Source: Promethearchaeota archaeon | GTDB taxonomy: Archaea > Asgardarchaeota > Lokiarchaeia > Sigyniarchaeales > SOKP01 | Assembly (NCBI GenBank): GCA_016839745.1 | Contig: JAEOTS010000092.1 | Coordinates: forward strand, 1 to 38,668 | Direction: 5' to 3' | DNA: 38,668 nucleotides | Shown here: piece after piece, positions 2,978-7,725 of the stretch | Layout: every line of letters begins with the position of its first letter | Position numbering within the stretch: the stretch's first letter is position 1 | Position numbers and translations under genes: made by a program | The notes under the pieces: generated by a model | Seen by the model: the letters and a program-made list of their open reading frames with translations, nothing else | Databases searched by the model: none | What the model was told of the DNA's origin: nothing

Positions 2978-4090
2978 TTAGGAGACTGGCTCGTACAAAA
3001 TTCCTAAATCGTCAGCATAATTCTTTACTTCATGTATTTCTTCCATTGAGGGTCTTCTGTTTATTTCTTTATATTTATGAGCAAAATATTCAGGATGGTA
3101 CTGCTGCATTATATTCATAACCGCTTTTGGAAGTTCTTTAGCAACATAGTCTAATATTGGTTTAGAACAACATTCAATGTGATTAGGCATAATTAAATGC
3201 CGTATTATTATTTCTCCACTTCCCTCATCATGGACTCTTTTATGATTTCTGGCAATAACATCAAAATATTTGTCAATTCCAGAGTATTTTTTTCCACATT
3301 CATTATTTCCATACTTGAAATCAGGTAACCAGAAATCCATAAAATCTATTATAAGAGATAAGGATTTATCTGTTAGATAGAAGTTTGAATTCCAAAGTTG
3401 AGTAATATTCGATGTTTGATATTGTAAGCTACCAACAATAGTGTGAATGTTTGGAATAGGATCCCCTCCTACATAGTTAATATTAATAGCACCTTTCTCG
3501 ACTAATCTATTTGCAAGAGCTGCTAATTGTTTTACATCAACTTTTTGAGCAATATCCTCGATTTTTCGTCGTTCCTTCCACTTTTGAGAAATATCGTAGT
3601 TTTGGCAAAAAACACATCCAAAATTGCATCCTTGGAAAAAGATGGTACCACTTGGGATTAATGGTGCTTCCTCTCCTGTATGGAGAAAAGCAGAAGAAAT
3701 ATACGAGTCTTTAGATATAAGGCAAAAACCCTTTTCACCATCAATTCGATTAACCGAGCATTGCCTCTCGCAAAAAATACAATCTTCGAGGTATCTAATT
3801 GCTATTTCTTCAGCCAAATCGATATAGTTTTTTGAAGCAATATTTCTTTTTTTAATGTCTTGAATAGGATTTTTAAGCAACTCATTAAATTCTAATGATT
3901 TCTCTTCTAGCAATTTTTCTAGGTCTTCAATAGTATCATTTGAATTGAATTCACAACTTAAGCTTTTAGCGACAATATATCTCGCAACTTCCTTATCATC
4001 AATAATACCGCGATACCTTAGAAATCGTCTGCGAAGCTCTTTATTGTTCCAAACCAAAGCTGAGTCTGTTCGAAGAATTCTAAAAACCAT
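2978..4090 (-). CDS. pflX: PflX-like radical SAM protein
   Basis: CxxxCxxC 'CNFGCVFCQN', N-terminal 'CIFCERQCSVNR', 'HTGEEAPLIPSGTIFF', 'PDFKYGN', 'IIRHLIMPNH'. Confidence 0.85.
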   Translation of the reverse strand: MVFRILRTDSALVWNNKELRRRFLRYRGIIDDKEVARYIVAKSLSCEFNSNDTIEDLEKLLEEKSLEFNELLKNPIQDIKKRNIASKNYIDLAEEIAIRYLEDCIFCERQCSVNRIDGEKGFCLISKDSYISSAFLHTGEEAPLIPSGTIFFQGCNFGCVFCQNYDISQKWKERRKIEDIAQKVDVKQLAALANRLVEKGAININYVGGDPIPNIHTIVGSLQYQTSNITQLWNSNFYLTDKSLSLIIDFMDFWLPDFKYGNNECGKKYSGIDKYFDVIARNHKRVHDEGSGEIIIRHLIMPNHIECCSKPILDYVAKELPKAVMNIMQQYHPEYFAHKYKEINRRPSMEEIHEVKNYADDLGILYEPVS

Positions 4091-4182: not shown

Positions 4183-4911
4183 TTAGGTTTCAAAACTAAG
4201 CCATTTAATAATATTGGTAAGAAAACTAATATTATCTCCAGCGTCTAATCCAAAATCATCTTCAATCAGCCAATCTGATGAACCAATAGTGACACATCTT
4301 CCGCTGAAAAATTCACTTACGACACAAACAGGAACAGTTCCAATTCCTCCTATATCGTTGTCAATAAAATATTTAAACTCCGCTTTTTCTGAAGTAACAA
4401 TAATATCTTCAACATCTTCCTCCGTAATAGTAAGAAATGTACAGTTAGGTAGAACTACTTCCGTAATCCCTTCAGTTATTGGGTGGTTAAATAACTCGGT
4501 TACAAGAACATTTTGTTTATTAACTAAAAAATGCGATGGGGATTCTTGAATTAACCCATTCCAAAATCTTTTAACCCCCGTCATTTTATATAACACTCTA
4601 ATAGAACCCATCTTCATTGGAACATCTCTGTCGCCTCCTTCACCAGTAGTTAGGAAAAGTCCTCCACCTTCTCCAACATAACGTTTAATTGCGAGTAGTT
4701 CGTCTTTAGTAAATTTGTCTTCCTTACCATCTTTGGTTTGTTGAACATTACCAATAAAAAGAATATCGTAGTCTTCAAGTAAATCGTAATCTATCGGCCC
4801 TTCATTCTTATCAATGTATTCAACTTCTAAATCGTCATCCCCTAAGGTAAAATCCGGAAATTCCTCGATGGATTCTTTGTGCGAAAGGTCCACAATTATG
4901 TTGTAGGTCAT
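4183..4911 (-). CDS. Soluble GIFT-domain (GldG/IFT52/DUF4350-like, class I glutamine-amidotransferase-like fold) protein
   Basis: 'IIVDLSHKE', 'KFTKDELLAIKRYVGEGGGLFLTTGEGGD', 'HPITEGI', 'GRCVTIGSS', 'DNISFLTNIIKWL'. Confidence 0.7.
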   Translation of the reverse strand: MTYNIIVDLSHKESIEEFPDFTLGDDDLEVEYIDKNEGPIDYDLLEDYDILFIGNVQQTKDGKEDKFTKDELLAIKRYVGEGGGLFLTTGEGGDRDVPMKMGSIRVLYKMTGVKRFWNGLIQESPSHFLVNKQNVLVTELFNHPITEGITEVVLPNCTFLTITEEDVEDIIVTSEKAEFKYFIDNDIGGIGTVPVCVVSEFFSGRCVTIGSSDWLIEDDFGLDAGDNISFLTNIIKWLSFET

Positions 4912-5138
4912 TTTGATGCGACTCCAAGTTCCATTATAAATTTATTTTTTGCAACGAGTAAAAGTTTATTCTAAGTTGTTTAAAGTGTTAATTCTACTAT
5001 CTAAAATAATATAATTTTTATTTTTAAAGATATGGTATTATTATTAAAGGTTTCTAAATCGTAATAGAACTAACGCAAAGTTTAAATATTTAGAGGAGAA
5101 TATATAAAGGATTGAGTAGAGTAAAAAGAGAAGATTAT

Positions 5139-5837
5139 TTATTCCTTTATGGAAATGAATTCCTTTTCTGCTGGACCTTCTTTTTTAACAACAGCAATAT
5201 CTATTCCATTCCCACTCGCCATGTCTCGAATTATGGATGAGGTAATAGCTTTAATAATAATCTCTTTTCCTTCTTTAATTGTTAAATTATCTTTATATTT
5301 AGCTTCAAGAACACCATATGAAAAATTTTGACCACTACCAACCGCACAAAACTTTTCTGGTAAAATTGAACCATAGGCTCCAATGTCCAAAAGAACAGGT
5401 CCTTCTTCTTCTGACACTCCTCCAAGTATGAGACCCACCTGAAATGGATACATTTTATTCTGGAATAGAATGTTAGATAACAATTTTCCAGCGCTTTCTA
5501 TTTTGATGGGTTTTTCTTCTTTCAATTGATATAACGCAGTTTCAGCTCGTAAAACATCAACTAAATACATAGCGTCAGCGACACCACCAGCTATCGTCAT
5601 GTACAAATGCTCTTGGATTCGATGCAGTTTTTCAGCTACTTTGCTAGCAACAAAATAACTCATGGACGCTCGTTTATCAGTTCCTAAGATAACTGCGTCT
5701 TTACATATTAATCCAACTGTAGTAGTGCCCGTTTTTAAAGTGCGAGCTTCCTTTATCTGAGAATTATCGTCATTCATAAATCTAGATTCTCGCAAAAAAA
5801 CAGATTCTGAAGGTTTTACTAAATCTTCTTTTCTCAT
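5139..5837 (-). CDS. psmB: Proteasome subunit beta
   Basis: 'KTG|TTTVG' processing site with catalytic Thr, 'DKRAS', 'AGGVADA', 'GSG', 'RDMASG'. Confidence 0.97.
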   Translation of the reverse strand: MRKEDLVKPSESVFLRESRFMNDDNSQIKEARTLKTGTTTVGLICKDAVILGTDKRASMSYFVASKVAEKLHRIQEHLYMTIAGGVADAMYLVDVLRAETALYQLKEEKPIKIESAGKLLSNILFQNKMYPFQVGLILGGVSEEEGPVLLDIGAYGSILPEKFCAVGSGQNFSYGVLEAKYKDNLTIKEGKEIIIKAITSSIIRDMASGNGIDIAVVKKEGPAEKEFISIKE

Positions 5838-5883: not shown

Positions 5884-6228
5884 TTATAAATTAAAATTTC
5901 CCTTAATATTTACAATAGAATCAATATCCCATAAATATTTTTTAAGATCGACCTTATTATTATCGACAAATTTAATACCTTCTTTCTCAAGCAAAATTTT
6001 TTGATAATCTTTACCATCTTCAGATTTCAAGGCAATTTTTCCTTTTGAATTAATGACGCGATGCCAAGGTAAATTATATTTCTTTGTTGAAGAATGTAAC
6101 AACCAAGAAACTTGTCTGGCAGCTCTTGGATTTCCAGCTAATTTTGCAATTTTGCCATAAGTGAGTACTTTTCCAACTGGAATATTTTGTATTATTTTAA
6201 TTACATCTTGAGTAAATTCGCTTGGCAT
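5884..6228 (-). CDS. Alkyltransferase-like protein (ATL, MGMT family, non-catalytic)
   Basis: 'IPVGKVLTYGKIA', 'ARQV', PWHRV (Trp in place of the catalytic Cys), 'LEKEGI'. Confidence 0.9.
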   Translation of the reverse strand: MPSEFTQDVIKIIQNIPVGKVLTYGKIAKLAGNPRAARQVSWLLHSSTKKYNLPWHRVINSKGKIALKSEDGKDYQKILLEKEGIKFVDNNKVDLKKYLWDIDSIVNIKGNFNL

Positions 6229-6246: not shown

Positions 6247-7725
6247 TTATAGCAGCTTTATTTTTTCGAATTCATCTCTTTTTTGAACAAATTTAATAAG
6301 TTCTTCTCGATCCGATCGTTTAGTTCTTTTAATATAAGTATTTAATCTTTCACTTGTATGAAAAGGTCCTCCTTCTTCTATTACGGTCCACATTGGGTCT
6401 TTAGGAAAGGGAGAAGTTTTCATCATCTGTACATACCATTCATCCAGAAATTGTAAACCTTTTCCTACAATATCTGGCCTCTTCCCTACAAGATTATTGG
6501 TCATATGGAAATCTTTTTCAAAATCGTAGAGCATGATTTTTGGATAATTTCTTAACCCAGGATGATATGTTCGAATTAAAGTCCAATTTCCAAACCTTAC
6601 AGCACGCTGACAAGTCCAAGCATTTTGGCTAATTACGAGATATTTTCTTCCAAATTCCTCTCCATTTTCAATCTCTTTATATATACTCTTCCCGTCCCAA
6701 AACTCAGGAACTTCTTTCCTTACCCCCTCAATTATAGTAGCAGCAATATCTGAAGCATAAAGAAGAGAATTATACTGTTTCTTCCATTTTTTCTTCGGCC
6801 ATTTTACTATCATCGGTATTCGATTAACAATATGACAAGCTGTTGCGTGATCTCCGAAGACTTGCAATTCTCCCTGATTCTCACCGTGATCTGAACTTAT
6901 AATTATAAGAGTATCGTCATAGATCCCTAAACATTTGATTTGTTCTATGATTTTACCTACAGCATCGTCAGCATATCTTATTTCAACATCATATCCATTT
7001 ATCCATGAGGTGAAGTCATCAAGGTTTTCTATTTTGGGGATATTTTGTATTCTTTTAAAGAACTGAGTAAGTTTCAATTTATCAAAGTCCCCAGTATCGC
7101 GTATTGAGTCTGGAACATCACTATTTCTAATTTCCTTAATAATTTTTTCTGTTATCCAGGAGGGAGGAGGATCATTTTCAAAGGAAGGTTCGTACGACAA
7201 ATGGGTCCTGTAAGGCGTGTGCGGATCCCAAAAATTTATATGTAAAAACCAATTATCTTTCTCACCGTTGCCTTCCAGCCATTTCTTTGCGTAGGGTAAT
7301 ATATCATCAGCTATTTCAAGACCTTCCTTACCGGGATTGTACATTTCATTCCATCCCGAACAAAACCAAAATGCTGAATGTCTTTCTGCAAAAGGTGAGA
7401 TTGATACAGTGTAATATTTTGCTCTTCTAAGGATTCCAATCCAATTATTCTTCAGGTATTTATCATCAAATCCTCGCTCTCTCCCAGTTAATCGCATATC
7501 TGCCGTAGTACCACCGTGACCTACTATTCCCGTGTGGATCCCAAATCTTCCAGTAAAAAGGGAAGCTCTAGAGGGTAAACAAGGAGCATCTGAAGCGTAA
7601 CAATTTGTAAATATTGATCCTTCTTCTGCAATTTTATCAATGTTCGGCGAAGTGTTGCGATGATACCCGTAACATCCTAGATGGTCAGCTCTAAGAGTAT
7701 CGATATCAAAATAAATTATTCTCAT
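6247..7725 (-). CDS. Formylglycine-dependent sulfatase (S1, Cys-type)
   Basis: 'DTLRADHLGCYGY', CxPxR 'CLPSRASLFTG', 'DPHTPY', 'SSDHGE'; no signal peptide. Confidence 0.93.
   Translation of the reverse strand: MRIIYFDIDTLRADHLGCYGYHRNTSPNIDKIAEEGSIFTNCYASDAPCLPSRASLFTGRFGIHTGIVGHGGTTADMRLTGRERGFDDKYLKNNWIGILRRAKYYTVSISPFAERHSAFWFCSGWNEMYNPGKEGLEIADDILPYAKKWLEGNGEKDNWFLHINFWDPHTPYRTHLSYEPSFENDPPPSWITEKIIKEIRNSDVPDSIRDTGDFDKLKLTQFFKRIQNIPKIENLDDFTSWINGYDVEIRYADDAVGKIIEQIKCLGIYDDTLIIISSDHGENQGELQVFGDHATACHIVNRIPMIVKWPKKKWKKQYNSLLYASDIAATIIEGVRKEVPEFWDGKSIYKEIENGEEFGRKYLVISQNAWTCQRAVRFGNWTLIRTYHPGLRNYPKIMLYDFEKDFHMTNNLVGKRPDIVGKGLQFLDEWYVQMMKTSPFPKDPMWTVIEEGGPFHTSERLNTYIKRTKRSDREELIKFVQKRDEFEKIKLL

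Follow-up and report, generated by a model that had tools for sequence, protein, structure and literature searches.

A divergent stand-alone GIFT-domain protein encoded beside a proteasome beta-subunit gene in Asgard archaea

Does a small GIFT-domain protein from an Asgard archaeon stand close to the ancestor of IFT52, a subunit of the ciliary transport machinery, or is it a different branch of the same superfamily with a role of its own? The question arises from a gene at 4183-4911, on the minus strand of the window, by which we mean the whole 38,668-nt stretch of DNA that was analysed. A reading of the window made from its letters alone (the sequence-only reading) had described the product as a soluble GIFT protein that closely echoes IFT52 and may lie near its ancestor. 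We find that the first part of that description stands: the protein is soluble, it consists of a single domain, and its best solved structural match is the N-terminal domain of IFT52 (IFT52N). The second part does not, given that the protein is not especially close to IFT52 and is not a likely near-ancestor. Instead, the gene belongs to a strongly conserved, unannotated family whose only stable neighbour is the gene for a proteasome catalytic subunit. Asgard archaea are the closest prokaryotic relatives of eukaryotes, and this pair of genes provides a concrete and testable hypothesis about proteasome biology in them. The host genome is 3.5 Mb with about 32% G+C and is 89% complete; the sequencing runs that contain the stretch are sediment and soil DNA metagenomes, with no RNA run listed.

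Domain and predicted fold of the protein

Read from its ATG, the gene at 4183-4911 (-) encodes 242 residues, and the whole protein is one domain. The strings quoted in the sequence-only reading (IIVDLSHKE, KFTKDELLAIKRYVGEGGGLFLTTGEGGD, and GRCVTIGSSDWL...DNISFLTNIIKWL) are all present in this translation, and the protein is as acidic and as free of membrane signals as had been described. Its pI is 4.19, with 47 Asp and Glu residues against 19 Lys and Arg, and the maximum 19-residue Kyte-Doolittle mean is 1.21, so there is no TM-like segment or signal peptide. The acidity is restricted to the window's own family, f1; members from the sister family have pI values of 6.1-9.5. At the end of strand 1, a DxSHxE motif comprising D8, H11, and E13 (4873-4890, -) is at least 90% conserved in the alignment of the stand-alone family. 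Nearly all of the sequence similarity to IFT52 falls in residues 66-94 (4630-4716, -), which read KFT...E71...G82 G83...GEGGD. In both the family and the superfamily alignments, the GIFT domain closes with a strand and a C-terminal helix formed by residues 204-238 (4198-4302, -; GR.V.IGSS...DN....I..WL). A superfamily alignment of 74 sequences shows almost no variation at E71, G82, G83, G112, and G204. There is no conserved Cys across the stand-alone family, C157, C196, and C206 being conserved only in f1.

The best Pfam match of the protein is IFT52_GIFT (PF23355), with an E-value of 1e-5 and 25.2 bits over residues 62-97 only; this score does not reach the cut-off of 27.2 bits, and no NCBIfam model matches the protein. 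We considered several other identities and rejected them. GldG proteins are exported or membrane-anchored and are encoded with ABC-transporter genes; our protein scores 12.9 bits on ABC_transp_aux (PF09822), where the cut-off is 34.7, it has no hydrophobic segment, and its neighbours are psmB, radical SAM, and FKBP genes, without ABC-transporter genes. ThuA (PF06283) gives no match to the protein itself, and the best member of its family reaches 31.4 bits against a cut-off of 33.4. Catalytic class I glutamine amidotransferases carry a Cys-His-Glu triad with the Cys at the nucleophile elbow after strand 4; the elbow here reads TTGEGGD, and since it holds no Cys the protein is probably not an amidotransferase.

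We predicted the structure of the protein with AF2. A shallow input alignment, made of orthologues at least 70% identical, gave a pLDDT of 41 and was replaced by the 74-sequence alignment, with which the model has a pLDDT of 92.2 and a pTM of 0.91; because this alignment contained IFT52-like paralogues, the model may be pulled towards them. When we searched the PDB with Foldseek, the comparison that the sequence-only reading had proposed, IFT52 N-terminal domains ranked first (5FMR, E 9e-13, TM 0.72; 5FMS, TM 0.74-0.82), with lower matches to OST48/WBP1 (TM 0.64-0.71), ThuA-like proteins (about 0.58), and STM3548 (0.57). With VIA-align, the mouse IFT52 N-terminal domain (5FMS_A) superimposes with a Z-score of 23.6 and an rmsd of 2.6 Å over 211 of 228 residues, followed by 8BD7_B (19.3), OST48 (18.8 and 17.0), STM3548 (16.9), and GATase1-like and ThuA-like chains (about 16); true amidotransferases score 10-15. 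The matches to IFT52, OST48, STM3548, and the GATase1-like and ThuA-like chains (Z 23.6-15) span residues 1-242, and these structural matches point to a GIFT domain of the class I glutamine-amidotransferase-like fold. The nearest solved structure to the predicted model is the IFT52 N-terminal domain; to our knowledge, there is no solved prokaryotic GIFT protein of the GldG or the Asgard type. By fold and by profile homology alike, the protein is a member of the GIFT superfamily, which takes in IFT52_GIFT, ABC_transp_aux, DUF4350, and OST48_N.

Two other groups of known proteins share this architecture in part. OST48/WBP1 (PDB 6S7O chain G and 6C26 chain B; PF03345) has the GIFT fold, and the family profile aligns to WBP1 over positions 23-247, nearly the whole domain, at 28.5 bits. 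OST48, however, is a lumenal, membrane-anchored subunit of oligosaccharyltransferase, and the archaeal protein has neither a signal peptide nor an anchor; an OST48-like identity was rejected. The Salmonella proteins STM3548 and STM1381 (PDB 2GK3 and 3SOZ) are cytoplasmic, and like our protein they are soluble, about 250 residues long, and built of a single domain of the class I GATase-like fold; the family profile finds its best sequence match in STM3548, at 31.6 bits. They differ in being bacterial, in being structurally less similar to the model than IFT52N, and in having no known link to the proteasome.

Range of the stand-alone family and its proteasome neighbour

Searching a collection clustered at 90% identity yielded 354 relatives at E<=1e-3; the best 120 of these 354 are at least 71% identical to the protein and 214-246 residues long. 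The MAGs in which near-identical proteins occur are labelled for the most part as Lokiarchaeota or Promethearchaeota, and the look-alike clusters in the ESM Atlas are from Promethearchaeota, with no eukaryotic cluster in that look-up. Among 1.8 billion representatives at 50% identity, we found about 22 clusters of full-length stand-alone proteins of 235-273 residues and then many longer GIFT proteins; when the representatives were searched with a narrow profile, none of the best 150 was identifiable as a eukaryotic IFT52 (ten were checked with Pfam). Full-length orthologues are present in most genomes of f1, where they score about 267-333 bits with the profile of the stand-alone family, and in the sister families f2 (13 of 13) and f29 (one of one). 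A few f1 assemblies gave only paralogue-level matches, and the same is true of f28, which belongs to the same order; f30-f32, of the same class, yielded no full-length orthologue (0 of 7). Across 200 genomes of the phylum, we found only longer ORFs outside f1 and f2, of 300-480 residues and with E-values of 1e-6 to 1e-15. Judged by these searches, the stand-alone family is found in only one Lokiarchaeia-type Asgard order.

Within f1, the GIFT protein is 54-96% identical and PsmB, the product of the adjacent proteasome gene, 61-88%; the two are about equally conserved, which indicates strong constraint on the GIFT protein, that is, purifying selection. In the searchable literature, no paper turned up in which both IFT52 and Asgard archaea are mentioned. 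Going by their titles and abstracts (for one paper, by a search for terms), papers on GIFT domains and archaea, or on Asgard archaea and intraflagellar transport, do not seem to report proteins of this kind. The stand-alone family is a real, conserved, and undescribed subfamily of a known domain superfamily.

The gene upstream, psmB (5139-5837, -), encodes an archaeal 20S proteasome beta subunit (Pfam Proteasome, 179 bits; NCBIfam arc_protsome_B, 217 bits), with a conserved MRKEDL start and a propeptide of about 37 residues before the GTTTVG active site. It lies upstream of the GIFT gene and in the same orientation at all 16 f1 loci that include upstream sequence and at 10 of the 13 f2 loci; at one more f2 locus it is convergent, and two are without psmB. 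The genome carries three proteasome genes of the beta type and two of the alpha type, so the GIFT gene is linked to one particular beta paralogue. In the linked PsmBs of f1 and f2, the propeptide is about 36-60 residues long and often begins with MRKEDL; in the best-matching PsmBs from f28, f30, and f32 genomes, it mostly has 0-20 residues. In five genomes of these last three families, no GIFT gene stands beside any psmB. The link to psmB is guilt by association, and these counts are not independent, since the carriers are all related and belong to one order, and shared descent explains part of the pairing. The psmB pairing and the propeptide correlation each amount to a single evolutionary event, and the propeptide correlation is therefore weak evidence.

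Several other genes in the vicinity deserve mention. At two f28 loci (L046:1-1217 and L047:1-1274, both -), what follows the psmB orthologue downstream is an unrelated ORF of at least 405-424 residues that runs to the edge of the locus. In f1, the conserved array has a fourth gene (1780-2907, -), which encodes a helix-hairpin-helix (HhH) protein with an FKBP-type prolyl isomerase domain (NCBIfam: RadA/HhH-like, residues 4-65; FKBP-type PPIase, residues 164-270), and a 40%-identical homologue is found upstream of psmB at one f2 locus (L035). On the other side of psmB, the gene at 5884-6228 (-) encodes a 114-residue protein with an MGMT DNA-binding domain only. MGMT methyltransferases have PCHRV where this protein reads PWHRV, which suggests an alkyltransferase-like (ATL) damage sensor and not an active O6-alkylguanine transferase; some genomes of the same genus keep this gene beside psmB. 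Beyond it, at 6247-7725 (-), lies the gene for a sulfatase-family protein of 492 residues (Pfam Sulfatase, 127 bits). Its translation shows no obvious N-terminal signal, which is unusual in a family that is mostly exported.

Possible roles beside the proteasome gene

We think it somewhat probable that the protein is a cytosolic, single-domain, divergent GIFT paralogue that serves as a non-catalytic binding module with a role linked to PsmB. It is a relative of the longer GIFT proteins of the IFT52 type, also soluble, that these genomes encode. In IFT52, the GIFT domain itself is a docking surface for IFT88 and IFT57/38 (PMC9753473). Because the GIFT domains of IFT52 and OST48 are protein-docking platforms, the analogy favours a binding module here as well, and its conserved surface would be formed by D8, H11, and E13 together with the GGD loop at the strand ends. 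The link to PsmB is suggested by the fact that the gene is kept directly downstream of one long-propeptide psmB even though the GIFT proteins of f1 and f2 are only about 27-34% identical (the PsmBs are 49-60% identical). The protein might then act as an accessory factor in beta-subunit maturation, in 20S assembly, or in substrate handling.

Alternatively, the protein may be a generic binding or scaffold protein that sits next to psmB through inherited gene order, with no functional meaning. The restriction of all carriers to one order would fit this explanation, as would the number of proteasome genes, since three beta and two alpha genes make such neighbours frequent by chance. The spacer in the window also looks promoter-bearing: it is 227 nt long (4912-5138, -), with a T-rich tract immediately after psmB ends and, 22-29 nt ahead of the GIFT start codon, a TATA-like TTTATAAT (4933-4940). 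If the two elements serve as terminator and promoter, as their sequences suggest, the GIFT gene could be transcribed separately in this window. In several f2 genomes, however, the gap between the two genes is only 16-22 nt, which is operon-like, and the psmB-GIFT adjacency is the only one kept between f1 and f2, whose other flanking genes differ and whose GIFT proteins have diverged so far. We regard gene order without function as possible but on the unlikely side.

A second alternative gives the protein a catalytic role, as a ThuA-like or GATase1-like hydrolase acting through D8, H11, and E13, possibly in one pathway with the product of the gene that follows it. That gene (2978-4090, -) encodes a radical SAM enzyme distantly resembling PflA and other activases (Pfam Radical_SAM and Fer4_12; NCBIfam activase-type models at 31-33 bits, which is weak). 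The radical SAM protein has 370 residues, with a CxxxCxxC cluster and an N-terminal extension of about 140 residues. In f1 and f29 its gene lies 14-92 nt downstream of the GIFT gene, and in f1 the GIFT gene is coupled more tightly to it than to psmB; it is missing, however, at all 13 f2 loci. The three residues themselves lie at the end of strand 1, which is where active sites sit in this fold, and in mouse IFT52, a non-enzymatic protein, N stands in place of the D and K in place of the H. IFT52 may thus have lost a site, for a ligand, a metal, or catalysis, that D8, H11, and E13 may still form in the archaeal proteins. Six of 28 stand-alone members also match ThuA at E<=1e-3, all below threshold. 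Yet there is no conserved Cys to act as nucleophile, no Pfam enzyme family is matched at its cut-off, and the best structural matches are non-enzymatic scaffolds. On balance, an enzyme appears unlikely.

Returning to the binding module with a PsmB-linked role, its most specific form would make the protein the dedicated partner of one long-propeptide beta subunit, and so an accessory or assembly factor of a new kind for the proteasome. We consider this strong version quite improbable. If it were true, such a factor would be built on the same docking fold as eukaryotic IFT52 and OST48.

Relation to IFT52 and to the longer GIFT paralogues

How close, then, is the protein to IFT52 (OSM-6/BLD1), a core subunit of IFT-B1 (PDB 5FMS, 5FMR, and 8BD7 chain B; Pfam PF23355)? 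The archaeal protein and IFT52N are both cytosolic and have the same fold over nearly the full length, and a KFT..E...GG....GG(D/E) segment and the C-terminal DN....WL helix are common to both. The IFT52 motifs given in the sequence-only reading turned out to be roughly right: HMMER pairs residues 61-96 with residues 64-98 of mouse IFT52 (EKFT...LKKYL..GG...GEGGE) and with residues 67-104 of Chlamydomonas IFT52, and it finds a weak second segment in which the C-terminal GS...D..N....WL is aligned to IFT52 217-246. The family profile matches IFT52 chains with E-values of 7e-6 to 2e-5. The similarity of the protein to IFT52 is more than chance. In contrast to these likenesses, the identity is only 16-21%, and the score of the archaeal protein lies below the Pfam cut-off. 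It also lacks the middle region that binds IFT88 and IFT70 and the C-terminal domain that binds IFT46, because it ends at residue 242 and is filled by the GIFT domain (its orthologues have 235-273 residues); in IFT52, the central segment and the C-terminal domain run from about residue 271 to the end (PMC9753473).

The claim of a close echo fares worse when IFT52 is set beside other GIFT proteins. The GEGG(D/E) loop had been taken as a mark of likeness, but its E varies even among close orthologues, where the position of the E in GEGGD is occupied by E, D, G, S, A, or V, and the sister family reads G..GD and LF(T) at the corresponding positions. The family profile scores 28.7 bits on IFT52, 28.5 on WBP1, and 31.6 on STM3548; these scores being level, the family is no closer in sequence to IFT52 than bacterial homologs are, the outcome that the sequence-only reading had named as its refutation. 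A narrow profile made from f1 gives only 19-20 bits on IFT52. On PF23355, stand-alone members range from no match to 25 bits, some scoring higher on ThuA or OST48_N, and a Peribacillus comparator (17.4 bits) and members of a membrane-anchored GIFT clade (clade D, below; 19-32 bits) fall in the same range as our protein. The search for IFT-B-like partners that had been suggested came out negative: with the IFT46_B_C, IFT81_CH, IFT57, and Cluap1 profiles, the best score in the 89%-complete genome is 13 bits, no better than bacterial controls, and homologues of IFT46, IFT81, IFT57, and CLUAP1 were not found.

A phylogeny of GIFT domains had also been proposed. We ran one on 112 domains, without IFT52 or OST48, and the stand-alone family forms its own clade in it (22 representatives, SH-aLRT 100), apart from clades A, B, and C, which contain four paralogues from the same genome as the window, and from clade D, a group of proteins with hydrophobic anchors. 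With hhalign, the stand-alone family aligns to clades A-D, members of which pass the PF23355 cut-off, with probabilities of 99.7-99.9 over 214-226 columns and, for A, B, and C, with probabilities of 99.8-99.9 and E-values of 1e-29 to 1e-35. Its scores against the other clades are 183-233, compared to 270-369 among those clades, and the stand-alone family is therefore the outlier. The clade D representative has no match at E<=1e-20 in 121 Asgard genomes, and a search for related loci returned one Peribacillus locus, at 27% identity.

We then searched the profiles of each GIFT clade against all PDB sequences. On Chlamydomonas IFT52, clade B scores 91.0 bits, C 70.0, A 66.3, and D 64.2, compared to 28.7 for the stand-alone family. 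It is very improbable that the stand-alone protein lies near the ancestral form of IFT52's GIFT domain: IFT52N is its top solved match, by about 5 Z units over OST48, IFT52_GIFT is its best Pfam match and the commonest sub-threshold one in the family (12 of 28 members at E<=1e-3), and its host is an Asgard archaeon, but its profile score on IFT52 is far below those of clades A-D, about level with WBP1 and lower than STM3548, some members fit ThuA or OST48_N better or match nothing, the family is found in one order only, neither the E of GEGGD nor the acidity is conserved, there is no tail for IFT88, IFT70, or IFT46, the partner families were not found in the genome, and soluble GIFT proteins are common, including three other soluble Asgard clades and Salmonella STM3548/STM1381.

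The four longer paralogues, all soluble, have 308 residues (L001:934-1860, -), 292 residues (L002:961-1839, -), 421 residues with a weak C-terminal HeH/SAP-like match (L003:1363-2628, +), and 457 residues with a long low-complexity or coiled-coil tail (L004:1486-2859, +); all four are on other contigs of the same genome. There is no psmB neighbour at any of these four loci. Like the stand-alone family, clades A, B, and C show homology over the full domain and have no signal peptide or TM segment, and clades A and C have the DxSH motif of the D8-H11-E13 site. Unlike it, they carry C-terminal tails of 50-230 residues (coiled coil, SAP/HeH-like), they are found across the phylum, and their profiles reach 66-91 bits on IFT52. 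All four paralogues pass the PF23355 cut-off, with 32-48 bits, and related representatives score 44-84 bits. By these comparisons, the longer paralogues are better candidate relatives of IFT52 than the stand-alone protein. If the GIFT domain of IFT52 has an archaeal source, the candidates are the longer soluble Asgard GIFT proteins and not the stand-alone one; an attractive but mistaken lead can be dropped in favour of the better paralogues that the same genome encodes.
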